From IMG/VR virus record IMGVR_UViG_3300042541_002760: a stretch of 64,000 bases of DNA; one strand, written 5' to 3'. The DNA is from a virus. Both the position numbers and the translations under genes were made by a program. Positions 24,858-64,000 of this stretch are shown here, piece by piece. How positions within the stretch are numbered: position 1 is the stretch's first letter; every line of letters begins with the position of its first letter. Below the pieces are notes generated by a model. It made no database searches. It was given only the letters and a program-made list of their open reading frames with translations, and had not been told where the DNA came from.

Positions 24858-25850
24858 TTAACTAATACTAAACCCTGCCGCCGTCAAGCCATTTGCAATA
24901 GGCAAACCGATTAGCAATGCCGAAGATGCAGTCTTTACACGCATCACGGTAAACATATCGATTCCTCCCGTTGTGCCAAACAATACAGGACTATTGCTAA
25001 GAATTGATCCTGTAAAACTTCCTGTTTGTCCGTTTGTTGACTGCACAATAACTGCAATTGTTTCGGTTGCATTTACTGTAGTGTTATCCCATCCTGGCCC
25101 CGCACTCACAACTACTTGTGCCGATGGTGTAATTTTGAAACGCTGAATTGTTCCACCCGTAGCATTGATAACGATGGAATTAGAACTTCCAAGATCTTGA
25201 TATGATGCATACTCTTCGGGGTTTTTGAAGATACCGCCTGTGATTTGAAGTGGTGTTGTATATCCACTTCCAAATACCAATCCTGTGTCATTCAATGCCA
25301 TTCTGCCGTTGGTGGCGGCAAAAGTTATCTTGGGAGATTGTGATTTATTACGGATATCAATATAAGCGTCTGGAGTATCTTTTGGGTCACCACCCAACAA
25401 AATACTCTCACCGAATACCTCTATCTCACCGCCATCGGCAGATGTTAGTCCAATGTATCCTCCCGCACCCTTGCTATTTATACCTTGTGGGTATATGGTT
25501 GAAGTCTTAATATTTGGAGCAGTTATACCCGCCGAGAATGAATTACCACCCGCCGCAGTAAATATATTTGATATGTGTGTTCGAGCAACATTTCCTGTAA
25601 GGCTTACAGTGCCCGTAACGGATACACCAAAGTCTGCATTGGGGAATTGTGCAGCACCTGTTACTGCATAAGATGCTAATGGAATGTTTCCTGCTCCTGG
25701 GGGGCCTGGAGGCCCTTCGGGGCCAACACCACCGATAATACTTCCATCAACAATATTCCATACACCAAAGATTGCATCATATTCCCATATGACATTGCCA
25801 TAACCATATGTTGCTCCATCTGCTACGCCGCTTGGGGGATTAAATGCCAT
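24858..25850 (-). CDS. Short fibre protein (W-rich head, short collagen stretch, C-terminal fibre domain)
   Basis: MAFNPPS...IWEYD...W head, GPEGPPGPPG, GIDMFTV terminal domain; CTAAATA at 25883-25889. Confidence 0.7.
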   Translation of the reverse strand: MAFNPPSGVADGATYGYGNVIWEYDAIFGVWNIVDGSIIGGVGPEGPPGPPGAGNIPLASYAVTGAAQFPNADFGVSVTGTVSLTGNVARTHISNIFTAAGGNSFSAGITAPNIKTSTIYPQGINSKGAGGYIGLTSADGGEIEVFGESILLGGDPKDTPDAYIDIRNKSQSPKITFAATNGRMALNDTGLVFGSGYTTPLQITGGIFKNPEEYASYQDLGSSNSIVINATGGTIQRFKITPSAQVVVSAGPGWDNTTVNATETIAVIVQSTNGQTGSFTGSILSNSPVLFGTTGGIDMFTVMRVKTASSALLIGLPIANGLTAAGFSIS

Positions 25851-25885
25851 GTTTGTTTCTTTCTTTTCTCTTTGCTACTTGTTAT

Positions 25886-26302
25886 TTAGAAGGTTCCACC
25901 ATCAATCGTTCCGTTCTTTCGAAGAAGCGGTAACCAACCGTTTGTTTCATCATATTGATATACCAATTTTGTACTCTTGTCATAAACAATTCCAAAATTT
26001 GTTTCGGCATTTGAAACTCGTTTGTATAGCACCCAATTCATACCATTTGAACCGTCATATGTGATAATATCATTTGCATTAATACTAACCCCGCTAGTAG
26101 GGGGGAGTCCCACGGCACTGATATTTCGGATAATGTATTTTTTACCTACTATTGTGTCAAACGGATCATTATTATTTTCAAGTATTCCATCCACCGAAAA
26201 GTCTATATCGGATCCATTCATAGTATAGAAAAAATCTTCAGGAGTTTCTAATCTACCCCCACGGTTTGCTTGTTCTATTCTATCTGCTACTTGGATTGGC
26301 AT
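25886..26302 (-). CDS. Fibre adaptor-like protein ending IDGGTF
   Basis: Paralogous to the N-terminus of the 28534 protein (IQVADRIEQANR/IRIADVLEQMNR; IDFSV). Confidence 0.7.
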   Translation of the reverse strand: MPIQVADRIEQANRGGRLETPEDFFYTMNGSDIDFSVDGILENNNDPFDTIVGKKYIIRNISAVGLPPTSGVSINANDIITYDGSNGMNWVLYKRVSNAETNFGIVYDKSTKLVYQYDETNGWLPLLRKNGTIDGGTF

Positions 26303-26317
26303 ATTATTTCTTTCATA

Positions 26318-28534
26318 TTAGGCTGTGATAACAATCGAAGTGCCAACTAAGCCTGGGTTTGTGCTTCTGTAGAAATAATAGTTTTCGGTATATCCTGCAT
26401 TATTTGTATATGGCTGCTCAAAAGTACCTGGTACTGCTCCGTCTCCCTGTTTCGTGAATCCTCCATCATTACCGTTTGTTTTTAGTCCTCCAAGTTGAAT
26501 CTCTCCATGTCGTGCAGGATATGCAAAGTAATCATAATTGCCAACGGGCCCAGCAAGGCTATATGATGCTGCTCTATTATTCTGTATTGATTTCACAAAA
26601 CCGTGTGCAAGCATTCCACCTGTAAGATGTGCTCCTGTTAAACTCGTAGCAGTTGTTGCTCCTCGGACAACATGATTCAAGAATGAAATCGTACTTGCAC
26701 TTTGTGAGAATGTGCCAGCAGAACCTGTTGCCTGAAGTCTAATGGTCACAGTTCCAAGACCTCCACCTGGCGCAGATGTAATAGATTTTCCTGCACCATA
26801 TGCAAGTTGATTCATGGCACCCGTTGCAAAGAATACGGGGAAGCCTGTGCCATATCCACTATCCACTTGTATAGAAGCAGTCGCAGGTGGCCCAAGATTA
26901 TATGTAATACTAGTTGCAGTCAAGTCAGCCACACTAAATTGGGTACTTCCAACCAATTGTGTACTGCCAATACCACTATTGAAATTAGTTATTGAGAAAA
27001 CAAAATCTGCGGGTTTGAATACCTCAAAGTTGCGAATATAGTCAAAAGTAAGCGAACCATCTTCGAGTAAGAATGCTACTTTTCGTGCAAGTCCCGAATC
27101 GGGAGTTAAGGTCGTTGGTGCTACATGGGTCAATCCCGTGTTTAGATCACCACCCGCAATAGAACCTGTATTACCTCTTGCACCTGCATTAATAAATGTA
27201 ATCGACAACTCTGTAAGACTGTTGGGGAAGTGTTGGGAAAGTGTTCCACTTAATGGAGTACCATATAGGTACTGAAACACACCGCTGTTCGCTGATACAC
27301 CACCCGTTACTTGGAATATAAAGTGTCCTGTACTTCCTGCTCCAACATATCTTGGTCGAACATGCAATGTACCATCAATATCAGTTGTACTGTTGTACCA
27401 TGTTGATATATAAGATTCGTGGTTTACACCAAATTCATCTTTTCGGTGAAGTAAGACAGTATTATCATTGGTTGCAGTCAAGCCACCAATATTGCCAACA
27501 GAGAACGAATCATATTTTGTAAAGTATGCAAGACCCGCAAATGATCCTGTTGAACCTCTTGGGCCCGTTGCACCCGTGGCACCTGTAGATCCTGTTGCAC
27601 CCGTAACTCCTGTTACGCCCGTTGCACCTGTTGCACCTGTAAATCCTGTTGTTCCTCTTACAGATCCAATAGTAAAGAAGTCCGAAAAGGCACCATTCGG
27701 CATAACATATTTTGCCTGAAGGTTTCCATTTGCATCAATACTTACAGCAGTAAGACCAACACCCGTAACTCCTGTTGCACCCGTTGCGCCAATACTTCCT
27801 GTTGGGCCTGTGACACCTTGAATGCCTTGATCACCCTTTGTACCTTGACCAACACCAACAACACCTGTCTGTATCCATGCATCACCGAATCGAACATAGT
27901 TTCGGAATGGATCTTCCGCAGGCCCTGTTGCAAGAAGAAGTCTATCACCTGTAATTCCTGCTCCTGAAAGACCCCTATCACTCCATGTCGTACCACCATC
28001 AAATGTGAGTGGATATCCCGTTACAAGAGGATTGTCACTGCCGAGAAATCCCGATGAAGATCCTGATCCAACAACAGTCCAATTAGCACCATCATAATAA
28101 TAGACCTTACTGTCATGTTCGTTGAAAACAATTGTTCCACTCGGAGTTTTTGGATTGGAAATATCTAGATAAACTTGCCAAGGTACTTGACCTGCAACAT
28201 CATAATTGGCAAGACTAACATTCCCACGCTGAACAATATCTCCAGCACCAAGTTGTGTTGGGCAATCATGCCCACCTCCACCACATCCTGAAAATGTAGT
28301 CCATATTCCTGTATCAGTAACAACATACTTAGTTCCGTATGGGCTGTTTGCCTTAAGAGTTGCACCACCACTTGTGGTGTCATATCGAGAAGTATCTGTA
28401 CCTACGATACCCTTGACAGAGAAATCAATATTCCCAGAATGTACGAGCGAAAAGTATCCTGTTCCTGTGAGATTTGCCTCACGGTTCATTTGCTCCAATA
28501 CATCTGCTATTCTAATTCCTGGTTGTAGTGACAT
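26318..28534 (-). CDS. Collagen-like (G-x-T) fibre protein, 738 aa
   Basis: GATGVT triplet runs; shares modules with the 28553-30283 protein. Confidence 0.8.
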   Translation of the reverse strand: MSLQPGIRIADVLEQMNREANLTGTGYFSLVHSGNIDFSVKGIVGTDTSRYDTTSGGATLKANSPYGTKYVVTDTGIWTTFSGCGGGGHDCPTQLGAGDIVQRGNVSLANYDVAGQVPWQVYLDISNPKTPSGTIVFNEHDSKVYYYDGANWTVVGSGSSSGFLGSDNPLVTGYPLTFDGGTTWSDRGLSGAGITGDRLLLATGPAEDPFRNYVRFGDAWIQTGVVGVGQGTKGDQGIQGVTGPTGSIGATGATGVTGVGLTAVSIDANGNLQAKYVMPNGAFSDFFTIGSVRGTTGFTGATGATGVTGVTGATGSTGATGATGPRGSTGSFAGLAYFTKYDSFSVGNIGGLTATNDNTVLLHRKDEFGVNHESYISTWYNSTTDIDGTLHVRPRYVGAGSTGHFIFQVTGGVSANSGVFQYLYGTPLSGTLSQHFPNSLTELSITFINAGARGNTGSIAGGDLNTGLTHVAPTTLTPDSGLARKVAFLLEDGSLTFDYIRNFEVFKPADFVFSITNFNSGIGSTQLVGSTQFSVADLTATSITYNLGPPATASIQVDSGYGTGFPVFFATGAMNQLAYGAGKSITSAPGGGLGTVTIRLQATGSAGTFSQSASTISFLNHVVRGATTATSLTGAHLTGGMLAHGFVKSIQNNRAASYSLAGPVGNYDYFAYPARHGEIQLGGLKTNGNDGGFTKQGDGAVPGTFEQPYTNNAGYTENYYFYRSTNPGLVGTSIVITA
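27176..27610. repeat. Near-identical duplicated module (copy 2 at about 29255-29680)
   Basis: Long identical stretches encoding [36 protein letters not shown] and [33 protein letters not shown]. Confidence 0.9.
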
Positions 28535-28552: not shown

Positions 28553-30283
<1,731 letters not shown>

Positions 30284-31277: not shown

Positions 31278-31850
31278 TCAAGGAAGTTGATTCCAAATTC
31301 CGATTTGATCACAATATGATCCGTATCGAGATTGAATGAATTCGGGATACTCTTCCTGAGTAGTCGAGTTGTCCCCAATCCATGTATCAAACCATGCATA
31401 GTCCCAATGCGATGTATTTGGGGGTGTCCATGTATCGATGTCTGCATGAACGAGCGTAAATCGAGAATCTTTTGGACAATGATCCCATACGAGATCGATT
31501 ACTTCTTGATTTTTCTCTATGATGGTTACCGAAGTAACAAAAGGATTATCCATCAGTTTTTGATTCACAAATCCAAGTCCCAATCCTCCAATAAGGACAT
31601 CACCCGTTGCGCCGTCCCACAGTGGCTGATGTTCGGCATATTCATGAGTTGTATCCATCATGATGGGGCCAATCGAATCAACACATAAGAATGTATATTC
31701 GCCATAAGGTTCTTCTCTGCAAGTAAGATTAAATCCATAGATTTGACTGAAAAGAGTTGATACTCCAAATCCAAAAGAATCTCCTGTTGCTTTTTGAATC
31801 GACCAATTGCCGACTCGACCTTCAGGAATATTTACAGCATAATGTGTCAT
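31278..31850 (-). CDS. Class I SAM-dependent methyltransferase (spermidine-synthase-like)
   Basis: GDVLIGGLGLG, VTIIEKNQEVIDLV, HAD, WDYAWFDTW. Confidence 0.8.
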   Translation of the reverse strand: MTHYAVNIPEGRVGNWSIQKATGDSFGFGVSTLFSQIYGFNLTCREEPYGEYTFLCVDSIGPIMMDTTHEYAEHQPLWDGATGDVLIGGLGLGFVNQKLMDNPFVTSVTIIEKNQEVIDLVWDHCPKDSRFTLVHADIDTWTPPNTSHWDYAWFDTWIGDNSTTQEEYPEFIQSRYGSYCDQIGIWNQLP

Positions 31851-32689
31851 CCGTATGCCTTTATGATGATTGATCCGACTGCTCCCGCACCACCTCTACC
31901 TCTTGTTGTGGCGTTTGATCCACCGCCGCCGCCGCCACCTCCAGGGAAACCGCCTGTCATGCCAACCACACCCACCGCTCCTCCTGTACCTCCGTTACCA
32001 CCTGCATATGATGTGAATCCTCCCGCCTTACCACCCGTACCACCACCCGATGCAGTGGATGTGCCATTATTTCCCTGTCCTCGAAATCCTTCTTCGGATC
32101 CCAATTCTCTTCGATCAGGAATATTTGTGACTTGGATAATTGTTCCAGCAGTACCTCCATTGGGAACTGTTGTAGCCTTCAATCCTCCATAACCTCCATT
32201 TGCAACCACCGAATAGAATAAACTTGCTGAACATACATTGAAATCTCCTGATGTGAGGCTGTCATGATCTAATACCGTTATTCCATTTCGAGTATGTCTA
32301 ATAAGACTAGTCTGCAATCCTGCCACTCCATCAACTCCGACATTTCCGCCGAGGCCGCCAGCACCAACAGATAAAACTAATAAATCTCCTGCTTGCATAT
32401 CAAAATTATTAAAAGCACATCCCAAAAAGGTTCCTGTATTTGGTTGCCCACCATACATTGTATATCGCGCATATCCACCACCTCCACCGCCTCCACCGCC
32501 ATAGTAGTTTGTGGGTCTAGTACCAACACTGTGTCCTCCCGCACCACCTCCACCACCTCCCCACAATTCAACAGAAAGATATGAGGTACCTGCGGGAATT
32601 GAATATGATTGAGTTCCTCCCGTGGTGAACTGATTGGTTGCAAGAAGTTGATAACTTCTGCCCTGTGCACCTCTTGCTGCTCCAATCAT
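31847..32689 (-). CDS. Glycine-rich fibre-tip/adhesin-like protein
   Basis: VELWGGGGGG, VGAGG, ANGG.GG, G.G.IIIK; ATGA overlap with the long fibre gene. Confidence 0.75.
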   Translation of the reverse strand: MIGAARGAQGRSYQLLATNQFTTGGTQSYSIPAGTSYLSVELWGGGGGGAGGHSVGTRPTNYYGGGGGGGGGYARYTMYGGQPNTGTFLGCAFNNFDMQAGDLLVLSVGAGGLGGNVGVDGVAGLQTSLIRHTRNGITVLDHDSLTSGDFNVCSASLFYSVVANGGYGGLKATTVPNGGTAGTIIQVTNIPDRRELGSEEGFRGQGNNGTSTASGGGTGGKAGGFTSYAGGNGGTGGAVGVVGMTGGFPGGGGGGGGSNATTRGRGGAGAVGSIIIKAYG

Positions 32690-35600
32690 AAGAAGTTCAA
32701 CCCTCCAACGAATCCATAGATTGTTGTTCCTGCATCAGGAGTGATAAAGGAGATAACATCAATTCCTGTTGTTGACAATGTTGGTTTCACTCCTCCTGGC
32801 CACTTGATTCTTCCTTCCCATGTTGTTGTATTTCCCGTCATGCTTCCACCATTAGTGACAAGCAGAGTTACATTTCCTGCTCCTGTTGCGGGTGCTCCCA
32901 TGAAGTAAATTGCAGTTGTGCCCGTTGCTCCTGTGCCTATTCCTGTGAGAGTTTGCACCTGACCATTTGCAAAATTAATACCAACATTACGCAAAGTTCC
33001 ATTTGAATATATGGATTCGTTGACAATCTTTGCGCCATAGATTGTGGTTGTATTTGAAGCAGTACTACCAAGAGTTGTATTTTGACTAACCGTCAAACTA
33101 TTAAATGATGCTGTTGGGCCACTAACACCATTTGTTCCATGCAACTTTCCATAAATTGTTGCATCTATAGTTCCAGTTGTTCCAATAGTAATTGTATTAG
33201 AACCGCCACCTACTGTGTTATTACCAATGACAATCTGATTGGTTTGTGCATCAGCAGATGATCTTGCTCTCCAACCAATGAAGATAGAATCATTTGCAGT
33301 ATTCAATTTATTGGTAATAACACTTGTGCCAGTCGCACCCTTCCATCGCCCTGCCTGATATCCAATCGCAGTATTTCTTTCAGCAGAACCTGTGGTTGCA
33401 ATCGACTTGAGTGCTTCGTTACCAATTGCAGTATTTTGTTGCCCTTCATCATTTGTAAAGAGTGCCTGATATCCAATTCCAATATTATTAGATGTGAAAT
33501 TAGTACTCAGTGCCTGATATCCAATTGCAAGATTCGAACTTCCATTGGCATTGCTGAGTAATGACTCTCCACCTATCGAAACATTATAACTTCCATCTAC
33601 AAGAGACTGTGATGAATTTGAACCGATGGCAACATTATTAGATGCGGTTGATATTGTGGTTATAGCGTTAGATCCCAATGCCACATTGTTGATTCCTCCA
33701 CCCGTACAAGAATGAAGTGCATTGAATCCAAATGCAACCGAATATGAATTAGTACCAATTTCCATGGCACCGCTTCCAACAGCAGTATTGAACAGTCCTC
33801 CTGAATTTCCTGATAGTGCGCCTTTGCCAATTCCAAGATTGCTCGCAACATTTCCAGCACCCAATCCAATATTCACTCCGTTGACTTTGATGTCATTTGC
33901 AAAGGTTGCACCACTTGCAGAAAGACCTGCACTTGCAGTCAGTAATTCACTAAAAGATCCAATACCATTAAATACATGTCCTTGGGTTGCACTATGTGTT
34001 ATGGTTTGGGTAGTATCATCGACAATGATTTGTGTGCCATCATTATTTCCATCATCGCCAACAGTAACAACAGCACCAAACAAATTTAGAATTCCGTTTC
34101 CACCAATAGCACTTACATCAAGAGTGTCGTTTCCATAACTTAATATTTCGCTATTACCCTTTCCTGCATTTATCTTCAATCCTCTGTTTGACAAACCAAA
34201 TGTATGATCAACAGCAGCACCAAATGTAGAGCCAGCCGCAACAACCAGATAATCTGTAGTAATAGTGGATGCACTAATACCTGCACTTGCAGTCAGTAGT
34301 CTAGAGAATGAGCCTGTAGCACCACTAAAGTTTCCACCGAAGGTTGCACCGCTCAGTACATTCAGATTGGAAATCGTAACATTATCGCGAAGACCAATAA
34401 CGATGTTTGGACATGTATTGAGAACTTCAATCTCTGACGCTGACCCCGTTATTACAACTGCTGCTGTGCATCCATTGAGAGATGCAACCGCAGTGACTGC
34501 CCCTGTTAGCCCATTGAAAGACCTGACCGTATTGGTTTCAATGTATGCATATGCACTTGCACCCTTAACAAGTCCTTCTTGTCCTGCTGCAACATTACCG
34601 AGGACAACACCGATCTCAAGCGAAAGATTATCATCAAATGTCTTTTTTGTGGCATTTGTTAATTGTCCCAATGTTGAACTTGTTATCAGTCCAAAATTTT
34701 CGGCAAAGAAGTTTTGAATGGATGCTCTTTTTGCCTTGACAGATCCTGTTTCATCTCCGTCATATATCAAGACAAAGTTTGTTTTTTTGCTGGTATAGGT
34801 GCCTGTATATGCAGTGAGATTTGCTGGATCGAAGAACAGACTTGTAGCAACATCATCTCCTGATACTCCTGCACTTAATCCACTACCAGGTGCGGCAAAG
34901 AACGAACCACGAAGTCTTACCAATCCATATTTGGGATCAACGGTGAAGAACGCATTATCGAAGTATCCAACTCCTGTCAGACCATGTTCCCATGATTCCT
35001 CATAGTTTCCTTGCTGCCCTGAGGCGACATAACCAGGCATCCCTTCAGGAATACCAGCAGTGCTAACACGAACACTAGATGTAAGCCTTGCAGTTAATTT
35101 TTTGTTGTTGGTTGCCGCTATATAACCACCCGTCCAAATTGCACCAGATGTTGATCCTGCCCCAACAAGTACAGACGAATCACCCCATACAGTATCGCCT
35201 GTTGCACCAACCGATGCATTAGCACCAATCGTGATTACATTATTACCAACACCACCGCGAGTGAGTGTGACACCAGATCCTGCGGTGAGGGACACTTGTC
35301 CAACAATAGCAGTAGTATTGTTGTTGCCGAATGCAATTCCTGTAACACCTGTATTGTTAACAGTAATACTTGACCCAAGAGAAGGGGTTCCACTTACGGA
35401 AATCCCACTTCCACTGTTTACTGTAATGCTACTATTAGCAAGTTGTGTGTTAGATATACCGCTCGACTTGATCGTTGTATGTCCTGTTATACTAACTGCA
35501 AACGATGAACTATCAAATGATGCAACACCCGTAACACCTGTAGTTGCAATACGAGCATCGATGAGATGAGTTCCTGCAACAGCACTTCGAACACTTACGG

Positions 35601-38433
35601 CTGCATTGTTCCCTTCACCTGTGATAGTAATTGCACTTGTATTACCATTAACACTCGGTACTCCTCCCGATCCACTTGTAAATGTAATTGTATTTCCTAA
35701 GACAGTTATTGCAGATCCTGTTAGATTGATCTTTCCTGTAAGACCAGCATCAAGACCAAATCCAATTCCTGTAACACCCGTATTTGCAATGGTTCCACTA
35801 GAAGCAATGGTAATCTGATTACCACTACGAGTGAGTGTGACATTAGATCCTGCCGTGATAGATACTTGTCCAACAATAGCAGTAGTGTTATTAGCACCGA
35901 ATGCAATTCCTGTAACACCACCACCCACACTGCTACTAGACGCAATCGTAACTTGATTGCCAACAACAGTCATTGTGACATTCGATCCGCTTGTCAGTGA
36001 CACATTACCAGTAAGAGTTGCATTGCCAAATGCAATTTGATTTACAATGTTCGATGCTTTTATCGTTGGTGCAAAGACATTTCCTGCAAATGTTGTTCCT
36101 GGATTAGCCGCCAGTGCGGCGACTTGTTGGATATCACCAGAAATAACAAGTCCAGTAGCGTTGGGGGCGGAGGGACTTGGGAAGATAGAAACATTTTGTA
36201 TTTCCTTGCCTATCACAATTCCGTTAGTGGATATTATATAGTCCGATACATTAATGATATTTGCAGTCAATCCATTCGTAGAAATACCGCCTAGTGCTGT
36301 TAGACCATTATTGAATCTAGCAAGACCTGTAGTTGTCAAACCACTATTAAAGGTAGCAAGACCATTAAAGACTGCTGTAGTTGCAGTGAGTCCTGTAGTA
36401 TGAATACCACCTAGTGATGTCAGACCATTGGTGAACCATACTAATCCCGATGCACTCAATCCACCTGTTGATGTAAGACCTGTGGTCTGAATACCACCAT
36501 TGAATGTTTGTGTCCCTGTATTAGTAGTGTTACCATCAACAGTTAGGTTGCCTGTAAATCGACCATTGGTTGCAGTGAGTCCTCTAGTGTGAATACCACC
36601 TAGTGCTGTTAGACCATTAATAAAGGTAGCAAGACCTGTAGTTGTCAGACCACTACTAAATGTAGCAAGACCAGATGCACTTAAGCCACTACTGAATGTA
36701 GCAAGACCATTAAAGACTGCTGTGGTTGCAGTGAGTCCAATCGTATGAATACCACCTAGTGCTGTTAGACCATTATTGAATCTAGCAAGACCTGTAGTTG
36801 TCAAACCACTATTAAAGGTAGCAAGACCATTAAAGACTGCTGTAGTTGCAGTGAGTCCTGTAGTATGAATACCACCTAGTGATGTCAGACCATTACTAAA
36901 TGTAGCAAGACCAGATGCACTTAAGCCACTTGAGAATACTGAGACACCTGAGAATGTAACACCCCCCGAAAAAGATGCAACAACCTTACCATCTGTAACT
37001 GTAAAGTGCCCTGGATGAAATGATGCAACACCTGTAAGACTTGTAGTTGCAATACGAGTATCAAATACTACATCAACACCATCTCCGTTGAAGTCTTGAG
37101 TTGCTACAGTGCGAATAGAACCCGATCCTGTGAGAGTTAAGTTGCCTCCCAAAGTAACATCAGCCTTGCCACCAATATTCCCCTGTACACCAAAAAAAGT
37201 GCTGGGATTTTTTAATGTTACTACACCTGTTGCTCCAACATTGAAGGATACTGAACTAAACGAGGCAACACCCGTAATACCTGTGTTGGTTGCAATACGA
37301 GCATCAATACGATTAATTCCTGCAACACTACTTCGAACAACTACAGCAGCATTGTTTCCTGCGCCTGTAATCGATATATCTCCTGTTGCACCATTGACGG
37401 TAGACACTCCATACTTACCAAGATCGTCTGTGGTCTCTACAAGATTCTTCCACTGAGACCAAATATATGTTCCTGTTGCACCACCTGATGTTCCTGTTCC
37501 ACCACGAAGGATATATCCCGTGCGAACATATTTGTCAAATGTCGTTTCATATGATCCGCTTGCTGCGGGTACACCACCAAGACCAGATGGTGATTGGACA
37601 TTATCAATCCATGTTCCATACTGTATGAGTGTTCTAAATGGAGTACCGATTTGAGTATCAACAAGTCCCAATGCTTGAAAATTTACATTTATATTTTCAA
37701 CAAGAAGTGCTCGTTCCAATCCAGTGCAAACTGCTGTCTGTGGGGTATCTCCTGGTGCATTTTTATAACATAGTGGAGGTACACCGCCAAGATTTCCCAA
37801 ATATTGCCCAATGAGATTTCCTTGACCTGTGCTTGAATATGCTTTTGCAAGGAACATTCCTGCGCCTGTGATGGAATCTATATCGAGAACAGTTCTGACA
37901 CTAGTGTTGCCTTCTTGATATGCATTTGCAGGGAGTAGTTCTGCAACCTTTCCACCAACCCGATTGGCATAATCTATGCTTGAAGCAATAGTTTTTGTAA
38001 AATCTACTAGTCCTGCAACACCCGAAGATGGAGTTAAATTATATGCATCAGGATTTCTATAAAGACCCCATCCTGCATTACCATTTCCAATTGAAACACG
38101 CCCATTGAAAGTTACACCGCTGTCATATCCTGAAAAAATTGCATTGCCCGTGATATTGAGTGTATGTCCCGTGATATCAGGATTTAAAGATACCTCAAAG
38201 AGAGTTGCTGTTGGGCCATTTGAATCAGCCTGAACATTAATACCATTTCCTGCATTAACAGTAAATTGTGGTGTATAGAAAACTGAATTGAATGTTAAAT
38301 ATCCACCGCTTGACAGACCAACAAAGAGTCTTTGATCTCTAAGGTTGACTGCAAGTTCACCTGAAGTTAATCCAGATGGAGTTGCACCTACTGCTTCAGT
38401 TCTGTGTATTTGTATTTGACTTTCGCGAGCCAT
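32686..38433 (-). CDS. Long tail fibre-like protein, 1915 aa
   Basis: Mtd-N-like head, RIAT..TGVASF repeats, GLTA/GLAT tandem repeats, N.AIG..AL (YadA-head-like) repeats, IKWPGG.KP..IDV terminal domain. Confidence 0.85.
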   Translation of the reverse strand: MARESQIQIHRTEAVGATPSGLTSGELAVNLRDQRLFVGLSSGGYLTFNSVFYTPQFTVNAGNGINVQADSNGPTATLFEVSLNPDITGHTLNITGNAIFSGYDSGVTFNGRVSIGNGNAGWGLYRNPDAYNLTPSSGVAGLVDFTKTIASSIDYANRVGGKVAELLPANAYQEGNTSVRTVLDIDSITGAGMFLAKAYSSTGQGNLIGQYLGNLGGVPPLCYKNAPGDTPQTAVCTGLERALLVENINVNFQALGLVDTQIGTPFRTLIQYGTWIDNVQSPSGLGGVPAASGSYETTFDKYVRTGYILRGGTGTSGGATGTYIWSQWKNLVETTDDLGKYGVSTVNGATGDISITGAGNNAAVVVRSSVAGINRIDARIATNTGITGVASFSSVSFNVGATGVVTLKNPSTFFGVQGNIGGKADVTLGGNLTLTGSGSIRTVATQDFNGDGVDVVFDTRIATTSLTGVASFHPGHFTVTDGKVVASFSGGVTFSGVSVFSSGLSASGLATFSNGLTSLGGIHTTGLTATTAVFNGLATFNSGLTTTGLARFNNGLTALGGIHTIGLTATTAVFNGLATFSSGLSASGLATFSSGLTTTGLATFINGLTALGGIHTRGLTATNGRFTGNLTVDGNTTNTGTQTFNGGIQTTGLTSTGGLSASGLVWFTNGLTSLGGIHTTGLTATTAVFNGLATFNSGLTTTGLARFNNGLTALGGISTNGLTANIINVSDYIISTNGIVIGKEIQNVSIFPSPSAPNATGLVISGDIQQVAALAANPGTTFAGNVFAPTIKASNIVNQIAFGNATLTGNVSLTSGSNVTMTVVGNQVTIASSSSVGGGVTGIAFGANNTTAIVGQVSITAGSNVTLTRSGNQITIASSGTIANTGVTGIGFGLDAGLTGKINLTGSAITVLGNTITFTSGSGGVPSVNGNTSAITITGEGNNAAVSVRSAVAGTHLIDARIATTGVTGVASFDSSSFAVSITGHTTIKSSGISNTQLANSSITVNSGSGISVSGTPSLGSSITVNNTGVTGIAFGNNNTTAIVGQVSLTAGSGVTLTRGGVGNNVITIGANASVGATGDTVWGDSSVLVGAGSTSGAIWTGGYIAATNNKKLTARLTSSVRVSTAGIPEGMPGYVASGQQGNYEESWEHGLTGVGYFDNAFFTVDPKYGLVRLRGSFFAAPGSGLSAGVSGDDVATSLFFDPANLTAYTGTYTSKKTNFVLIYDGDETGSVKAKRASIQNFFAENFGLITSSTLGQLTNATKKTFDDNLSLEIGVVLGNVAAGQEGLVKGASAYAYIETNTVRSFNGLTGAVTAVASLNGCTAAVVITGSASEIEVLNTCPNIVIGLRDNVTISNLNVLSGATFGGNFSGATGSFSRLLTASAGISASTITTDYLVVAAGSTFGAAVDHTFGLSNRGLKINAGKGNSEILSYGNDTLDVSAIGGNGILNLFGAVVTVGDDGNNDGTQIIVDDTTQTITHSATQGHVFNGIGSFSELLTASAGLSASGATFANDIKVNGVNIGLGAGNVASNLGIGKGALSGNSGGLFNTAVGSGAMEIGTNSYSVAFGFNALHSCTGGGINNVALGSNAITTISTASNNVAIGSNSSQSLVDGSYNVSIGGESLLSNANGSSNLAIGYQALSTNFTSNNIGIGYQALFTNDEGQQNTAIGNEALKSIATTGSAERNTAIGYQAGRWKGATGTSVITNKLNTANDSIFIGWRARSSADAQTNQIVIGNNTVGGGSNTITIGTTGTIDATIYGKLHGTNGVSGPTASFNSLTVSQNTTLGSTASNTTTIYGAKIVNESIYSNGTLRNVGINFANGQVQTLTGIGTGATGTTAIYFMGAPATGAGNVTLLVTNGGSMTGNTTTWEGRIKWPGGVKPTLSTTGIDVISFITPDAGTTIYGFVGGLNFL
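36290..36940. repeat. Tandem coding repeats (GLTATTAVFNGLATF..GLT..), also at about 38990-39240
   Basis: Multiple near-identical nucleotide units shared by two fibre genes. Confidence 0.85.
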
Positions 38434-46365: not shown

Positions 46366-46685
46366 TATGTTGACTCCAATACTGATACGATGATATCAAG
46401 TCCCGCAGTTAATCCTGCTGTAACTTTGAGTGTATCTCCTGTTACGAGTGGAATTGGTGCATCAAGTGCTTGGTATGTTGCTTGAATTGGAACTGCTGCT
46501 GCACGAACAATGTAGTACCCTGTTGCTCCCTTGAACAACTGAACAGATACACTATTGGCTAGTGTGGTGTTACTGTTGGCAACATGAATAGCATTCACTA
46601 TTGCAGTTCCTGTGATTCCTGCATAGATTACGGTGGCTGCTGTGACACCGACTGAAGTTGCGTAATTTGTGTATATGTCTGGCAT
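46365..46685 (-). CDS. Small fibre-associated beta protein (106 aa)
   Basis: IHVAN...PIPLVTGDTLKV...IIVSVLE pattern; ATAAATA at 46701-46707, AAGGA RBS. Confidence 0.7.
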   Translation of the reverse strand: MPDIYTNYATSVGVTAATVIYAGITGTAIVNAIHVANSNTTLANSVSVQLFKGATGYYIVRAAAVPIQATYQALDAPIPLVTGDTLKVTAGLTAGLDIIVSVLEST

Positions 46686-51600: not shown

Positions 51601-51642
51601 ATCATCACTGGAATTGAGATAGTCGTTAAATCTATTTGTCAT
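48631..51642 (-). CDS. 1003-aa collagen-like protein (charged GEKGDQ helix plus two G-x-T arrays)
   Basis: G-x-y repeats and two P....GD.W modules. Confidence 0.9.
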
Positions 51643-55316: not shown

Positions 55317-56258
55317 TTAGTTACTCTTGTTATAGTTGAGATAGTAATAACTGCTCATCGCATTTACTGCACTCGTGGTAAGACCAGGATTTTGGTCGAA
55401 GTAAACTCTAAAGGAGGTGAATGCACTTGCACCAACTGCACCTCCGAGAGAATCCTGTGCCTTGAGATTGATGGTCTTAATGCCCGATGCAGTAGATCCT
55501 GCAACCACAAGAACTGCAATATTGTCATATCGATAAGGAACAAGATCATCATCGGTGCTTGTTGCTCCGAAGAATGTTGTTACAACGGCGGTTGGGACTT
55601 TGGTGGTATCGTTAATATCTGTTGCACCTGTATACAACTGACATCCTGCGTTTGTGCCCGACAACCCAATTGTAAGGGTATTTGTGAAGTTTGCATCATT
55701 GACAGCAACCTTGATATATGCAGTGACTCCTGTCAGACCACCAAGCGAAGATACACCATACTTGTTAACACCATATTGGAATCCAATTCCACCCGCACGA
55801 CCTGGAGTCAGTCCTGCACCACCAAATGCTCCACCTGCCATGGTAGCAATATAGTTGAAGAATGAATGGGAAACTCCTGCATCACCTAGATTGGCTCCAC
55901 CTGTTGCACTATCACCGTTGAATGGGCATGAAAAGTAAGGTGCATAGTTTGGAAGATCGCTTCCCGATGTCGCGCCTTGACCCCATGAAAACCCTGTTGG
56001 GCCTGTTCTTGGAGTAAAAATTGCCGATGTTTTATCATCAACAGGCATTGCTACCAAAAGTTCAGTAATTACAGTACCGTTGGTATATGCAGTGATTGTT
56101 GACGAGGAAGAAGATACTCCTGTCGCACCATATGCAAAAAACGAACCCATAAGAGGCATTTCCCATCCACGGACGGTACGGGTGCAAAGTCTCTTCTGAA
56201 TCTTATTCAGCCATGTTGGCTTTGATTCTTCTCTGTCGTTATTTTTCCAAGTTGCCAT
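55317..56258 (-). CDS. Virion structural protein (G-x-T rich)
   Basis: MATW..D..ESKP.WL...GW...ELLVAM head; CTAAATA at 56283-56289, AGGAG RBS. Confidence 0.65.
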   Translation of the reverse strand: MATWKNNDREESKPTWLNKIQKRLCTRTVRGWEMPLMGSFFAYGATGVSSSSSTITAYTNGTVITELLVAMPVDDKTSAIFTPRTGPTGFSWGQGATSGSDLPNYAPYFSCPFNGDSATGGANLGDAGVSHSFFNYIATMAGGAFGGAGLTPGRAGGIGFQYGVNKYGVSSLGGLTGVTAYIKVAVNDANFTNTLTIGLSGTNAGCQLYTGATDINDTTKVPTAVVTTFFGATSTDDDLVPYRYDNIAVLVVAGSTASGIKTINLKAQDSLGGAVGASAFTSFRVYFDQNPGLTTSAVNAMSSYYYLNYNKSN

Positions 56259-56658: not shown

Positions 56659-59600
56659 TTATGATCCCTTTTCGGGGTTGTGTCCCCATACCTTAAGTGC
56701 TAACAATTTACGAGTAGGTTTTTTGTCTTCGTCTCTCAAAGGCCCTTTTGCGCCTTTCATTCGATTGATGAAATTGACTTGCTTCCCTGCCCATTTCCAA
56801 TCATTATCAGACCATTTTTCCATGGGGGTATCTAGCATTCGAATGATTGCACGGGCAGAATCTCGACCTGTACTAATTTTACCACCGTCTGCACCTGCCT
56901 TACCTGCCTCCTTGCGGGACAGTCCTGCCTCAGTTCCGTCATCAGAATCAAGGAATGTATCAATCTCCTTGCCCGACATATTTACAAGTTTTTGCCATTC
57001 CTTATAGAGATCCGACATCTCCTCTTCAGAAGTATCTTCCTTTACGGACACACAATTAGGAACTTTTTTCCCATTCTTCATCTTCATTCCCAATTGTTTA
57101 AACCCTACCCAACAAGGCTTATCTTCTTCAATTTCTTTCCGCTCGCCAGGGGTGTCATGCTTGTAGGTTTTTACAATCTTATCGGTGCCGATGAGTAACG
57201 GGCCTCTCTTACTCATAGAAGTCCATTTCAACACATTGTTGATTTTCTTAGCCTCATCAAGCCATGTCTCAGACGGCTCTACATCTTCTCCATGCATCTT
57301 CCATGCAGTCGCATAGAACACTTCCTTCCACCGCTTACCATATTGTTTTCGGAATGATGCTTTGGTTTTTTCATCCTTTGAGAAACTTCGTGCAGCACCT
57401 TTGGGTGGGCTAACTTCAAGTAAAAAGAATTCGAAGTCTTCGTTGATATCAGTCTTAGGCTGATTCGAACCCAACTCAGAATTGCGAATCTCTTTGAGGA
57501 ATTCAATATAGGTTCGTGCTAGATATGCCCCATCCTGCATATTGCGGGTCAGGCAGCGTTCTTCATATGCAATAGAAAGGCGAATCTTATTGTTGTTTGT
57601 TGTATCGCTCTGATCGATCTTCGCAAGGCGTTCGAATGCATCGTCCTGTTCGTATCGATTGTTTAACTCTTTTAACTGTCCGTTTTTTGTGAGTTTTTCA
57701 TAAAGTGTATTGCTATTAAGATTGACATGTTCTTCTTTTTTCGTTTGATTCTGTGGGTATATTGCCTCCGCAGGATCAACCAACATTCCTGTCTTGCTCA
57801 GGAATTGCAGACCGAGAAGGACTTTGGTGGACATATGGTTGCGATCACCAATTGAGAATTTGATGTTTGGGTATTTCTTTCCATGGAATTCAATGTCCAT
57901 GAAGATAACAAGTCGCTTCTTCTCCCCAATACCACTCTTGACAATAATTCGACTGACGATTTTCTTGGTAATCTTTTTACCATTCGACAGTTTGAAGGTA
58001 ACCGTGTGGTTTCCATTGTCTTTGATGTCTTCGCCATGAATCATATTGTAGCCACTGTTGCCTGTATCGACCTTGGCTTCATATTCGACTCCATCAATCT
58101 TAACTGTTTCACGAACAGTGAGGTTGGAGAACAGTTTCCAATTGGATTTGTTGAGAATATATTCAACAAAATCTTCGACCAACTCTTTGCCCTCGACATT
58201 GTTCTTGCCCTTGCCGTCTTCATAATAGCGGTAGTAGATATTACCACTGCCTGGGCTTGCATTCATTTCAATGATGTATGGCTTACCATCATTGATTACA
58301 TGATCAACTCCGACATAGTAGCACTTGCTAACCCGAGCGGCTTCCTCCACCAACTTGATTTCTTCATCAGAGAGTTGGAATGCACCACCCTTTGAACCTC
58401 GGGCAATGTTTGTGCGGAAATCCTTAGGAGCCTTATCCCGCTTTGCACAGGCAAAAATTTTACCATTCAGGCAGATGCTGCGAACATCATTCTTGAAATC
58501 AGGCAGGAATTCCTGCATAATGATTTCGGCATTGTATTTCCATAGAGTTTGTAGAACAGACTTCAGGCTTTCCATGCTTTCAATCTTGGACACGCCGATG
58601 CCTTCAGCCCCCGTAAGAGTCTTTACGATGACGGGGAACTTACCACCAATTTCCTTAACGGCAGTTTCAATATTGCTTTCGTCTGCAACAAATGTTGTGC
58701 GTGGGTGTGGGAGATTGTGTTTCTTGAGAGCAATTGCAGTTTCTAGTTTGTTTGCACAGAGTTCCATTCCTCCACGCTCATTGATCATGAACACTCCATT
58801 GTTCTGCAAGATGGTCATGATAGCAACACCGATATCACTATTCATCACACCACCACGAACAACTGCTACTGTGTCGCTTGGGATAACAGTGATATCTTTA
58901 CCTTCACCGTCATAATTCTTGATAGTGATTTTCTTCGAAGTAACATTTGAAATTTCTACTTGTGCTTTAGAAGTCTTCACTGCATAGAATTCAATTTTGC
59001 GCTTCTTGCAGATTTCCTGCATCTTTTCGATTGTATCGGATAGATCTTTTTCCGAAGAAGTTAGTGCAAGGATTGTTACCTTGTCACTTGGGTTTACAGC
59101 CTCTGAGATATATGACTCCCCAAGACTCAATCCCTTACGAACATCGCTGTACATCTTCTTCTTGGTGGCATTATCCTTACCTGGAACGCCCGTGGCAAAC
59201 TTTTTAAAGTCTCCATCGAAAGCAGCAGATCTCATCTTGGAAGCAGACATTCCCTCAACACCTTGAGAGTCATCATCCCGTGCCTCACCCGCCTGAACTA
59301 CTTCGAATTTTTCAAATGAATATACACGCTTCTTAGGATCACGATCTGCAACCTTGCCCTTATACTTGGCAATGTTTTTAAAGTTTTCGACTTGGTCACT
59401 TCCCGCAACCATGATGATGTTCTTATATCCCAATGAGCACACATATAGAACGGCAGTATACGGATCCTTTGCCATTCCTACAGGAAAGTTGCCCTTAGGA
59501 AAAAACTTCTTAAGGTATGCAACCTTTTGCTTATGTGATAGGGGGTTCTTCTTTGAGTCTTGTGTTTCAGATGCAAATATGAAATGATCTGCATTGTGCT

Positions 59601-59730
59601 TCTGCGCTTCGGAAACAATCTTGTCTACCAAGACACCGTGACCGATGGTCGGGGGGTTCATTCTGCCGAAAGCAATAACTGCTGTGTCTTTTTTTGCTTC
59701 GTCAATTCGATGTAAGAAACGCTCTATCAC
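56659..59730 (-). CDS. Polyprotein: cytidylyltransferase-like + RimK-like ATP-grasp + RimB-like retropepsin protease + short motifs + DUF3140-like domain
   Basis: FGRMNPPTIGH/MSASKMR; CANK, FPVIVK..G.EG.GV, QEF, DVR, FRTN, GVD, IEMNASPG; AKVDTG (D555), R.HM...VLLG; LVNMS.KE...LKVWGHNP. Confidence 0.85.
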   Translation of the reverse strand: MIERFLHRIDEAKKDTAVIAFGRMNPPTIGHGVLVDKIVSEAQKHNADHFIFASETQDSKKNPLSHKQKVAYLKKFFPKGNFPVGMAKDPYTAVLYVCSLGYKNIIMVAGSDQVENFKNIAKYKGKVADRDPKKRVYSFEKFEVVQAGEARDDDSQGVEGMSASKMRSAAFDGDFKKFATGVPGKDNATKKKMYSDVRKGLSLGESYISEAVNPSDKVTILALTSSEKDLSDTIEKMQEICKKRKIEFYAVKTSKAQVEISNVTSKKITIKNYDGEGKDITVIPSDTVAVVRGGVMNSDIGVAIMTILQNNGVFMINERGGMELCANKLETAIALKKHNLPHPRTTFVADESNIETAVKEIGGKFPVIVKTLTGAEGIGVSKIESMESLKSVLQTLWKYNAEIIMQEFLPDFKNDVRSICLNGKIFACAKRDKAPKDFRTNIARGSKGGAFQLSDEEIKLVEEAARVSKCYYVGVDHVINDGKPYIIEMNASPGSGNIYYRYYEDGKGKNNVEGKELVEDFVEYILNKSNWKLFSNLTVRETVKIDGVEYEAKVDTGNSGYNMIHGEDIKDNGNHTVTFKLSNGKKITKKIVSRIIVKSGIGEKKRLVIFMDIEFHGKKYPNIKFSIGDRNHMSTKVLLGLQFLSKTGMLVDPAEAIYPQNQTKKEEHVNLNSNTLYEKLTKNGQLKELNNRYEQDDAFERLAKIDQSDTTNNNKIRLSIAYEERCLTRNMQDGAYLARTYIEFLKEIRNSELGSNQPKTDINEDFEFFLLEVSPPKGAARSFSKDEKTKASFRKQYGKRWKEVFYATAWKMHGEDVEPSETWLDEAKKINNVLKWTSMSKRGPLLIGTDKIVKTYKHDTPGERKEIEEDKPCWVGFKQLGMKMKNGKKVPNCVSVKEDTSEEEMSDLYKEWQKLVNMSGKEIDTFLDSDDGTEAGLSRKEAGKAGADGGKISTGRDSARAIIRMLDTPMEKWSDNDWKWAGKQVNFINRMKGAKGPLRDEDKKPTRKLLALKVWGHNPEKGS

Positions 59731-61038: not shown

Positions 61039-61043
61039 GTGAA

Positions 61044-62480: not shown

Positions 62481-62490
62481 AGGTTCTCAT

Positions 62491-62519: not shown

Positions 62520-62546
62520 GGCATTATAGAGATGAAAACAAATAAA

Positions 62547-63140
62547 TCATTTGCTTTGTTTCTTGTGAACAACCAACAGGTCATCATATCGATTCTTGAC
62601 CTTGCGAAGATCAACTATCTCTGACGAGGGAATCAACTTATTCAGATATTGTGCCTCAGATTCTGTTTGGACATCTTCAATGACATACAGCCCATCTTTG
62701 TTCAGAAAGTCCTCTAAGATCAAGAAACTTGCTATCTGATGGGCAAATTGATGAGACCCATCATCAATAATGATATCGTACTTTCCCAAAAGATGATCAG
62801 TTACCCTTGGTAAGGTAGCATCCAATTGTAGTATTCGAATTTGATTATCAGCCGAAGCCGCCTGTTTGACTTTCACCTGCAAGGTACTTAGGTCAATGTC
62901 GATGCCCGTAATCTCCGCATTTGGAAAGTACTCTCGCCACATAAGAAGGGAGATACCGCCCTGCACCCCAATCTCCAATAAACGAATTGGTTTATCTCTG
63001 ATAGAAGAAAACAGGGATTCGTAGTAGTCTATGTACGAGTGAAGGGTTCCCTTGTCTGAGTTCTGAAGATCGTGATGGTTTGGATGGCAAATACTTTGAT
63101 AGTAAAGAGTTCTATAGATCTGATCGAGTGTGCTTTGCAT
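62547..63140 (-). CDS. Class I SAM methyltransferase, sugar O-methyltransferase-like
   Basis: SDKG..HSY...Y, LLEIGV..G.SL..W..YFP, GIDI, DIIIDDGSH, G.YVIED; AAGGA RBS before the ATG at 63140. Confidence 0.85.
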   Translation of the reverse strand: MQSTLDQIYRTLYYQSICHPNHHDLQNSDKGTLHSYIDYYESLFSSIRDKPIRLLEIGVQGGISLLMWREYFPNAEITGIDIDLSTLQVKVKQAASADNQIRILQLDATLPRVTDHLLGKYDIIIDDGSHQFAHQIASFLILEDFLNKDGLYVIEDVQTESEAQYLNKLIPSSEIVDLRKVKNRYDDLLVVHKKQSK

Positions 63141-63204
63141 TTTTGTTCCTTGATTAATAGGTGTCATGTGATTCATTTGTTATGGTCTTTCTATAAAATT
63201 TTTG

Positions 63205-63753
63205 TCAATAGTCTGCGTCTGTTAATGGTTTGCCTTGCATGTCTTTGACAGACAACAAGGGATCGATGCCTTCAAGTTTCCAATCAATACCAATAAGAGG
63301 ATCGTTCCATGCGATGCAACGCTCAAATTGTGGTGCAAAGAAATTTGTGGTCTTGTAAAGGAATTCTGCGGTTTCACTGAGAACTAAAAATCCATGTGCA
63401 AATCCTGGTGGGATCCACAGTTGCTTTTTGTTCTGCGCGGAAAGAATTTCGCCTACCCACTTGCCAAATGTGGGAGATGACTTACGGATATCCACCGCAA
63501 CATCAAACACCTCTCCTTGCGACACACGCACTAACTTTCCTTGTGGTTGTTGCTTAGTTTGGTAGTGCAGTCCGCGCAACACGCCCTTTGCAGAGCGTGA
63601 ATGATTGTCCTGTACAAATTGAGGTGCGGATTGACCAAGTGCTTGTTCAAATACACGCTCGTTGAAACTTTCGTAGAAGAATCCCCGAGAATCTTCAAAT
63701 ACCTTGGGCGTGAAGCAAATCACATCTGGAATTGTCAATTTTTGTACTTGCAT
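63205..63753 (-). CDS. rmlC: dTDP-4-dehydrorhamnose 3,5-epimerase
   Basis: DSRGFFYES, FVQDNHS.S..GVLRGLHYQ, DVAVDIR..SPTFG.W, GFAHGF. Confidence 0.96.
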   Translation of the reverse strand: MQVQKLTIPDVICFTPKVFEDSRGFFYESFNERVFEQALGQSAPQFVQDNHSRSAKGVLRGLHYQTKQQPQGKLVRVSQGEVFDVAVDIRKSSPTFGKWVGEILSAQNKKQLWIPPGFAHGFLVLSETAEFLYKTTNFFAPQFERCIAWNDPLIGIDWKLEGIDPLLSVKDMQGKPLTDADY

Positions 63754-63757
63754 TATA

Positions 63758-64000
63758 TTAATTCCACCATTTGAATAGTCCTTTTGTTTGCTTTGCAGTC
63801 CACCCAAACTTATTAATCTTGTCTGTGCTGAGAGAATATCTAAGATCCTGTCCCCATCTATTGTCAACAAACTGTATTCCTTCTTTCCCCTTTCCGAAAG
63901 ACTCTAGTAGGTCAAGGGCAACTTCTAAATTGGTCATGTGGTTGTTTGCGCCAATGTTGAAGACATCGTTCTTTGCGCCACCCTGAATGAGTGTGTAAAT
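63758..64000 (-). CDS. rmlB: dTDP-glucose 4,6-dehydratase, C-terminal 80 aa (5'-truncated; not in ORF track)
   Basis: Hand translation ...VFNIGANNHMTNLEVA...IQFVDNRWGQDLRYSLSTDKI..FGW matches the RmlB C-terminus; immediately upstream of rmlC. Confidence 0.8.
   Translation of the reverse strand: MYTLIQGGAKNDVFNIGANNHMTNLEVALDLLESFGKGKEGIQFVDNRWGQDLRYSLSTDKINKFGWTAKQTKGLFKWWN

Follow-up and report, generated by a model that had tools for sequence, protein, structure and literature searches.

A candidate two-part glycosylation system for the collagen-like fibres of an uncultured T4-like phage

Collagen-like fibres and sugar genes on one viral contig

We analysed a 64,000-nucleotide stretch of DNA (the window) from the IMG/VR virus record IMGVR_UViG_3300042541_002760. 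The window covers bases 54416-118415, read on the reverse strand, of one linear viral contig of 147,569 bases, and a position w in it is position 118416 minus w of the genome. Between positions 24,858 and 64,000, the window contains genes for fibre proteins with threonine-rich, collagen-like arrays and ends in genes for deoxy-sugar synthesis. Our subject is the possibility that the phage glycosylates these fibres with enzymes of its own, namely a protein-type glycosyltransferase, here called GT2-TPR, and the products of a block of sugar genes. The contig is 65% complete according to CheckV and, judged by its gene content (a UvsX-like recombinase, a DnaB-like helicase, ThyX, ribonucleotide reductase and a baseplate wedge protein, with homologues of gp13/14/15 and terminase present in relatives), comes from a distant T4-like myophage, uncultured and aquatic. 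No match among GenBank phages was obtained when 12 kb of the window were searched with megablast, and the DUF6267 protein is only about 35% identical to that of the nearest GenBank phages but has homologues at 60-100% identity in dozens of IMG/VR contigs.

Arrays of G-X-Y triplets were found in four proteins of the range, of 750, 1003, 576 and 738 residues, with Thr occupying about half of the Y positions. In the 750-residue fibre (43792-46044, minus strand; Pfam Collagen, 218.4 bits), the arrays at residues 38-391 and 560-634 comprise 143 triplets with Thr (75) or Gln (61) at most Y positions and mainly A, S, I and V at X. The 1003-residue fibre (48631-51642, minus strand; Pfam Collagen, 303.5 bits) has a charged array at residues 121-327, with 69 triplets and no Thr at Y, and two G-x-T/G-x-Q arrays at residues 560-769 and 812-979, whose 126 triplets hold all 62 of its Y-position threonines. 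Shorter G-x-T arrays occur in the fibre-like proteins of 576 residues (28553-30283, minus strand; Thr at Y in 15 of 27 triplets) and 738 residues (26318-28534, minus strand; 16 of 23). In the relative G001, the homologue of the former likewise has G-x-T triplets and that of the latter, with 950 residues, retains four G-x-T arrays. The saturation of the collagen arrays with G-x-T, reported in a preliminary description of this stretch, is thus borne out by the counts. The nonapeptide GIQGVTGAT of the arrays recurs in at least 120 stretches of varied viral contigs.

The same description had likened the fibres to BclA of Bacillus anthracis, which fits the G-x-T-rich stalk better than the head. The C-terminal head of the 750-residue fibre (residues 635-750) is modelled as a beta-jellyroll (predicted local distance difference test score, pLDDT, 74.6). 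Its best structural match is the tail fibre of phage 7-7-1 (E 2e-3), with TNF-family and ExsFA structures at E of about 0.02-0.04, and the model therefore appears most similar to a phage tail-fibre tip and weakly similar to TNF-type folds. In the lineage L190, the counterpart of this head (window 43795-44142, minus strand; L190:13741-14085) is found joined to an N terminus of the 1003-residue type, and the collagen arrays look like joints at which recombination exchanges heads.

A protein-type glycosyltransferase paired with collagen genes

GT2-TPR, a protein of 420 residues, is encoded at genome 145707-146969 (PF00535, 35.2 bits against a cut-off of 23.3) and has a DxD motif, D136-x-D138, that is invariant across diverse homologues. 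Its nearest solved relatives in the PDB, the flagellin O-GlcNAc (N-acetylglucosamine) transferase GmaR (3e-8), SunS (2.5e-5) and a ThuS-like enzyme (9e-4), all have proteins or peptides as their substrates. Models for TPR score below their cut-offs on this protein in every case, while a few relatives carry precomputed TPR families. Its relatives suggest a soluble protein glycosyltransferase of the SgtA, GmaR and SunS kind, for which transfer to the Thr of G-x-T is predicted.

The best 80 loci of a profile search with GT2-TPR were all members of the phage's own clade, and over these the protein is 62-100% identical, more conserved than DUF6267. The gene order of the clade runs from the baseplate wedge gene through genes for proteins of 1655, 1133, 270 and 113 residues to GT2-TPR, a tail fibre of about 1100 residues, gp13/14/15 and terminase. 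GT2-TPR is thereby part of the late structural block, with baseplate and short-fibre-like genes on one side and, immediately downstream, the fibre gene, which takes the position of gp12/wac. In 35 of the 49 loci with enough downstream sequence, this fibre has a collagen array 1.3-1.8 kb downstream of GT2-TPR; our contig breaks off 550 bases into the fibre gene (genome 147019-147569).

We then compared 120 loci, chosen solely for the GIQGVTGAT collagen motif, with 80 control loci of similar total length. Homologues of GT2-TPR (23-39% identity) were present in 10 of the motif loci and in none of the controls (Fisher p 0.006, the loci not all being independent). In the eight motif loci that were gene-mapped, the homologue adjoins the collagen motif or a Thr-rich collagen gene or lies within about 4.5 kb of it, and one of the collagen genes so paired encodes 2836 residues with 438 triplets, 281 of them G-x-T. 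The mapped loci represent about five lineages and the cultured jumbo phage Tunturiibacter phage Tunturi_5 (PP885688, 28905-38126; L282) another, giving at least six besides the clade itself. In Tunturi_5, the homologue gp35 is located 3.7 kb from the tail fibre gp29, which carries long GPT/GAT arrays with 65 G-x-T against 23.5 expected; gp35 also has a nucleotidyltransferase gene as its neighbour. Of the computational evidence for glycosylation of the fibres, this repeated pairing of GT2-TPR with collagen genes is the strongest.

Threonine outside the collagen arrays

With expectations obtained by shuffling the residues within each protein, G-x-T reached z scores of 4.6-13 in the four collagen proteins, and of 4.4, 3.2, 2.7 and 2.4 in the proteins of 106, 1915, 313 and 680 residues, respectively. 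The 1915-residue fibre (32686-38433, minus strand), which has no collagen array, contains 56 G-x-T against 40 expected; GLT accounts for 18 of these, mostly within a tandem repeat that the protein has in common with the 680-residue fibre (38503-40545, minus strand). The repeated motif is about 12-13 residues long (…F-x-x-G-L-T-x-x-G-G-I-H-T-x-G-L-T-A-T…), and both fibres also carry the widespread fibre motif N-G-x-T-G-x-(I/V). The Gly/Thr-rich 313-residue protein, of no known family (55317-56258, minus strand), has 10 G-x-T against 4.8 expected, and the 106-residue protein (46365-46685, minus strand) has five. Two of these five fall within a hydrophobic segment (residues 12-31) and are thus a poor fit to exposed acceptor sites.

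The recurrence of G-x-T in non-collagen structural proteins had been noted in the preliminary description, with no enrichment by eye in replication enzymes or in the CTS-bearing internal proteins. With arrays of at least four triplets masked, the pooled fibre-like set contained 185 G-x-T against 132 expected (z about 5), the highest excess among 306 gapped residue pairs, and all remaining open reading frames contained 184 against 170 (z 1.1). The direction of the difference was thus confirmed, although most of the excess in the fibres turned out to come from tandem repeats and G-x-T-G dyads: 24 of the sites are GLT in the repeats common to the 1915- and 680-residue fibres, and masking the tandem repeats and all G-x-x-G-x-x dyads as well left 95 against 80 (z 1.85).

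These numbers bear on an alternative in which the virion is not glycosylated at all: Thr and Gln at Y would stabilise a triple helix free of hydroxyproline, the other G-x-T would belong to beta-fibre repeats, and GT2-TPR would act on another target such as a host protein, as GmaR does on flagellin. Besides the fall of the excess under full masking, this alternative can draw on the composition of bacterial collagens, in which Thr is the commonest Y residue (31.6% of triplets and 48.3% in Gram-positives) and of which most have no known glycosylation (PMC8968730), Thr at Y being a general trait of prokaryotic collagens. It can also draw on the closest relatives of the phage, in which Thr occupies X instead of Y in the array, (G-T-N/D)n, of the fibre next to GT2-TPR (e.g. 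L090:1677-4952). The fibres of T4 are mildly enriched too, with 56 G-x-T against 44 expected and six Thr before Gly against four, and T4 is absent among ten GenBank phage records carrying a GT2-TPR homologue; the milder excess in T4 indicates that part of the signal is general to beta-rich fibres and part is stronger here. On the other hand, G-x-T-G, with Thr at y of G-x-y-G, occurs 44 times against 19 expected (2.3-fold) in the fibres, where Thr at x occurs 13 times, and 10 times against 4.7 in the baseplate/tail module, but 6 times against 8.2 in non-structural proteins. Three further points argue against a virion devoid of glycans: GT2-TPR belongs to the late structural operon, it is paired with genes for Thr-rich collagens across the lineages described above, and SgtA provides a precedent (PMC7157674). 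We consider such a virion quite unlikely, and glycosylation of the fibres in some form somewhat probable.

The sugar block between uvsX and the helicase gene

The preliminary description ended the window with rmlB, rmlC and a gene resembling sugar O-methyltransferases. All three assignments hold, with only the last 81 codons of rmlB inside the window, and the genes are the near end of a block that spans genome 43768-55869 and continues past the window back to the UvsX-like gene, so that it lies between uvsX and the gene of the DnaB-like helicase. Starting from uvsX, the block encodes unknown proteins of 174 and 243 residues, a GT2 protein of 201 residues above the Pfam cut-off, unknown proteins of 341 and 120 residues and a DegT-family protein of 404 residues; then a weakly GT2-like protein of 208 residues, an unknown protein of 258, a protein of 309 without a family and a DUF5672 protein of 241; and finally a faintly GT2-like protein of 263 residues, a short-chain dehydrogenase/reductase (SDR) of 276 residues, RmlB, RmlC and the methyltransferase.

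The rmlB-like gene for a dTDP-glucose 4,6-dehydratase (63758-64000 in the window, minus strand, running to about 64651; genome 53765-54658) encodes 297 residues. The full reading frame matches PF16363 with 185.8 bits and PDB entry 2hun with 1.3e-72, and the alignment to 2hun retains GxxGxxG (GGRGFIGS), T-D-E (STDEVYG) and YxxxK (YSASK). The match to TIGR01181, at 314.5 bits, falls under the equivalog cut-off of 365.1, the protein being short. We predict an extended-SDR 4,6-dehydratase, whose preference may be for dTDP- or for UDP-sugars. The product of rmlC, dTDP-4-dehydrorhamnose 3,5-epimerase (63205-63753, minus strand), scores 243.7 bits on PF00908 against a cut-off of 27 and is 55-68% identical to annotated phage RmlC; its likely start is the ATG at 63753, 4 nt past the rmlB stop. 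The class I S-adenosylmethionine-dependent methyltransferase of 209 residues (62547-63176, minus strand; Methyltransf_24, 32.7 bits against 26.3) has MycE (3ssm, 2.2e-15) and TylE (8ia9, 3.4e-14) as its best solved relatives, both over the catalytic domain only, and is predicted to O-methylate a sugar.

The 404-residue DegT-family protein (genome 47624-48838; L003:7624-8838) is nearest to WbdK and ColD, the 3-dehydratase of colitose synthesis (1.9e-55), and appears to be a PMP (pyridoxamine 5'-phosphate)-dependent 3-dehydratase. At the site of the aminotransferase Lys it has His-His, its YGHHFSTIEGG aligning with YSHHIATMEGG of ColD/WbdK, and we take a His of this site to be the catalytic residue. 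With such an enzyme in the block, the product need not be rhamnose, and a 3,6-dideoxyhexose branch is as likely. The 276-residue SDR keeps GxxGxxG and YxxxK and lacks the Asp-Glu of the dehydratases (T-D-E), which may suit a 4-ketoreductase in the place of RmlD; on the RmlD model TIGR01214 it scores 15.3 bits against a cut-off of 224.

The protein of 309 residues (genome 50454-51383; L003:10454-11383) matches no Pfam family. A model built from nine sequences (pLDDT 85) resembles FUT8, NodZ and POFUT1 in Foldseek (2.3e-10; template modelling score 0.60), and R158, G159, T160 and D161 are invariant within the consensus H-L-R-G-T-D. We read the H-x-R-x-x-D of the GT23/GT65 fold as a nucleotide-sugar motif, and the fold together with the invariant R-G-T-D makes the modelled protein a candidate L-6-deoxyhexose transferase. 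An identical copy is carried by a contig of 173.6 kb. On other T4-like contigs, distant homologues are found in sugar blocks together with genes for DUF5672, SDR, RmlB-like and DegT-like proteins, which makes such cassettes a general feature of T4-like phages. PDB sequence searches with the DUF5672 protein and the GT2-like proteins of 263 and 201 residues gave nothing informative on the acceptor, and a literature search on DUF5672 found nothing relevant.

The absence of a visible glycosyltransferase, stated in the preliminary description, is therefore correct for the window but not for the contig, which has four GT2 matches and one FUT8-like fold; a genome lacking such enzymes had been named as evidence against virion glycosylation, and they are present. 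The suggestion to look past position 64000 for rmlA and rmlD yielded, besides the glycosyltransferases, the SDR as a candidate for the latter. For rmlA (PF00483), neither the contig nor its relatives of 93% and 98% completeness gave a match, and the pathway must thus begin from NDP (nucleoside diphosphate)-glucose of the host.

The sugar genes might also serve DNA hypermodification. T-even phages glycosylate hydroxymethylcytosine, and the contig has a Mom-like gene, a DNA methylase and ThyX. It has, however, no pyrimidine hydroxymethylase of the ThyA family and neither a GT-B type DNA glucosyltransferase nor any GT1 match, which makes glycosylated bases unlikely; we also know of no dTDP-6-deoxyhexose acting as donor for DNA glycosylation. 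This use of the block is highly improbable.

Upstream of the block, uvsX is immediately preceded by a polysaccharide deacetylase gene with a CTAAATA motif (L003:1904-2677), and further upstream are genes for S-adenosylmethionine decarboxylase, the DNA methylase and the Mom-like protein (L002:17038-19354).

Linking the block to the fibres

The block is hypervariable in relatives that share the gene order around it. Its core of the 201-residue GT2 protein, the GT2-like proteins of 208 and 263 residues, the SDR and RmlB is kept, and the genes for the 258-residue, 309-residue and DUF5672 proteins are found at high identity in just one locus with an anchor protein at least 97% identical. In the lineage L190, which has long G-x-T/G-x-Q arrays, the contig ends at the helicase gene.

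Several observations, together with the generic Thr at Y, the Thr at X in the adjacent fibre and the repeat-derived excess of G-x-T described above, weigh against the idea that the block decorates the fibres. The expected co-occurrence of rml genes across related phages failed to appear: rmlC and the methyltransferase gene are restricted to loci in which the anchor protein is at least 97% identical, and rmlC was seen in one lineage only. It is absent from five larger relatives, including genomes that are 93% and 98% complete, and from a 96%-complete genome with the collagen motif; two near-complete relatives lack the methyltransferase gene as well. The 93%-complete relative is also without the 750-residue block and the long GVT-GAT arrays, retaining short G-x-T arrays in its homologues of the 738-, 576- and 330-residue proteins, but this is a single co-absence of rmlC and long arrays and not a test of their linkage. 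Finally, four genomes of other lineages that have the GT2-TPR/collagen pair, one of them 100% complete, contain no RmlB-like gene and a single GT2, so that a phage-encoded deoxy-sugar pathway is not needed for the pair. The evidence linking the rml block to the fibres is thus thin and partly negative.

The same observations are compatible with a block whose products alter the envelope of the host (its O chain, capsule or S-layer glycan), for example to prevent superinfection or to keep progeny off debris, with the fibres receiving at most a simple sugar from GT2-TPR. Modification of the host O chain is the published reading for aquatic T4-like phages, in the passages on pelagi- and cyanomyophages of two accounts (PMC7029224, PMC12801897). 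Some 90 kb separate the block from GT2-TPR, its neighbours are replication genes of the early or middle kind, and its content turns over between relatives as that of O-antigen loci does. The ColD-type 3-dehydratase points to 3,6-dideoxyhexoses, the classic sugars of O antigens, and the pair of GT2-TPR and collagen occurs in other phages without rml genes.

The position of the block is accompanied by a lack of motifs of the late type. CTAAATA has 29 copies on the contig, 21 of which sit at most 60 nt upstream of the start of an open reading frame, many of these being structural genes. It precedes the genes for the 313-, 1003- (30 nt upstream), 168-, 311- and 330-residue proteins and the baseplate wedge gene, and the related TAAATA precedes those for the 106- and 680-residue proteins; neither marks any gene of the sugar block as a promoter. 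The late promoter of T4, TATAAATA, is not enriched on the contig, with 6 copies against 7.5 expected, and CTAAATA is a candidate late promoter that fits better than TATAAATA.

What speaks against envelope remodelling is the kind of proteins encoded. A hydropathy scan found no multi-pass membrane protein in the block, none of its proteins having more than one hydrophobic segment, and there is no flippase, polymerase, ligase, Gtr-type or acyltransferase-type membrane protein; the sole multi-segment protein of the contig is a 907-residue open reading frame outside the block, and no protein of the flippase or polymerase kind was found. To our knowledge, all phage serotype-conversion modules described have integral membrane proteins. 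The fold of the 309-residue protein, moreover, includes protein O-fucosyltransferases. We regard remodelling of the envelope as a serious alternative, if on the whole an unlikely one.

A two-part glycosylation system

What the genes are, their catalytic motifs and synteny, and the repeated occurrence of GT2-TPR with collagen genes are direct observations; from these we infer the enzymatic steps, the acceptor and the link between the two parts of the system as follows. The first part, conserved in the clade, would be the soluble GT2-TPR of the late baseplate-to-neck block, which most likely primes Thr (or Ser) of collagen-like and fibre proteins with a host UDP-sugar, in the cytoplasm and before assembly. 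The second part, variable between strains, would be the block of soluble enzymes, starting from NDP-glucose of the host. RmlB would produce the 4-keto-6-deoxy intermediate, from which RmlC, the SDR as a 4-ketoreductase-like enzyme and the ColD-like protein could make donors of the L-rhamnose type, of 3,6-dideoxy-L-hexoses or of both. The three GT2-like proteins, DUF5672 and the FUT8/NodZ-like transferase would attach the deoxy-sugars, and the MycE/TylE-like enzyme would O-methylate one of them. The primed fibre would be the most likely acceptor, giving a strain-specific glycan coat.

A use in the virion is favoured by the solubility of all block enzymes, the lack of serotype-conversion membrane machinery, the transferase of the POFUT1 superfamily and the priming enzyme in the late operon. 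Virus-encoded rhamnose pathways, rhamnosyltransferases and rhamnose O-methyltransferases are known to serve virion glycans in chloroviruses and mimivirus (PMC9614988). We consider the complete two-part system with the primed fibre as acceptor plausible but somewhat short of probable, and the arrival of the block's deoxy-sugars on the fibres possible though doubtful. The proposal of a glycosylated virion in the preliminary description gains from the protein-type GT2-TPR beside collagen genes, while its choice of methyl-rhamnose was too specific in view of the ColD-type enzyme and the occurrence of rmlC.

Extended to aquatic T4-like phages at large, the idea would be that these build a strain-variable, O-antigen-like coat on their own collagen-like fibres, GT2-TPR priming Thr and the block extending the glycan with 6-deoxy or 3,6-dideoxy and O-methylated sugars, so that their auxiliary genes for 'LPS' (lipopolysaccharide) are virion serotype loci; at this breadth we hold it to be unlikely. 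If true, many auxiliary genes annotated for host LPS modification would need a new reading, and host range, particle stability and stickiness would have to be considered in the light of fibre glycans as a new variable. As Tunturi_5 is cultured and has the same enzyme near a fibre with GPT-collagen, the idea is directly testable.

Other genes of the contig

Inside the fibre module, a gene for a methyltransferase-like protein of 190 residues (31278-31850, minus strand; phrog_15480, 2.6e-22) has a 63% identical homologue in G001 and is kept in a 168-kb relative; the protein gave no match in a PDB search and no strong match in Pfam. PHROGs and Pfam had no family for the proteins of 313, 163, 106, 168, 680, 1915, 812 and 330 residues. 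At 56659-59730 (minus strand), a 1023-residue fusion combines a cytidylyltransferase-like domain, a RimK ATP-grasp, a retropepsin-like Zn_protease and DUF3140.

Comparison with known systems

The closest parallel to GT2-TPR is SgtA of Clostridioides difficile, in which a GT-A/GT2 domain is followed by TPR and whose gene, directly upstream of the gene bclA3 with its collagen region, is responsible for O-GlcNAc on the Thr of G-P-T repeats (PMC7157674). In architecture, the phage enzyme would match it as a GT2 with a TPR-like tail encoded directly upstream of a collagen-bearing gene. It differs in having 420 and not 358 residues, in arrays with A, V or I and not P at X, and in that the nearest fibre of the phage's relatives has Thr at X, the Thr-rich arrays being about 55-80 kb off.

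In B. anthracis, the collagen stalk of BclA has Thr at Y bearing GalNAc-Rha-Rha-Rha-anthrose, according to the account in PMC10050317 (Daubenspeck 2004, cited there). By analogy, the phage would make deoxy-sugars via dTDP-4-keto-6-deoxyglucose and O-methylate one sugar, but it has no rmlA or canonical rmlD, has a ColD-type dehydratase in place of the aminotransferase of anthrose synthesis, keeps its sugar genes distant from the collagen genes, and has a jellyroll head that is only weakly TNF-like. Chlorovirus PBCV-1 (A064R/A061L) and mimivirus (R141/L780) are parallels in function, using virus-encoded 4,6-dehydratase, epimerase/reductase, soluble transferases and O-methyltransferases for virion glycans in the cytoplasm (PMC9614988); these are giant viruses of eukaryotes with UDP-sugars and N-linked or fibril glycans.

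Among tailed phages, mycobacteriophages encode transferases that attach O-glycans to the capsid and tail proteins of their own virions (Freeman et al. 2023, as summarised in PMC12801897). Their hosts and phage groups differ from those of the present phage. The acceptors in the mycobacteriophages are reportedly the C-terminal tails of capsid and tail-tube proteins and not collagen repeats, and we know of no other tailed phages in which virion glycosylation is established. The 'LPS' clusters of pelagimyophages and cyanomyophages resemble the block in that their content of genes for glycosyltransferases and deoxy-sugars varies, and they often lie close to fibre genes, while a protein-type GT2-TPR paired with Thr-rich collagen is not discussed in the relevant passages of those accounts (PMC7029224, PMC12801897). 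Our literature search found no paper proposing this combination in a T4-like phage. O-glycosylation of G-x-T collagen by a GT2-TPR enzyme is known from spore surfaces, and virion glycosylation from mycobacteriophages and giant viruses; a T4-like phage that combines the two with a variable deoxy-sugar block would be a new variation on systems of known type.

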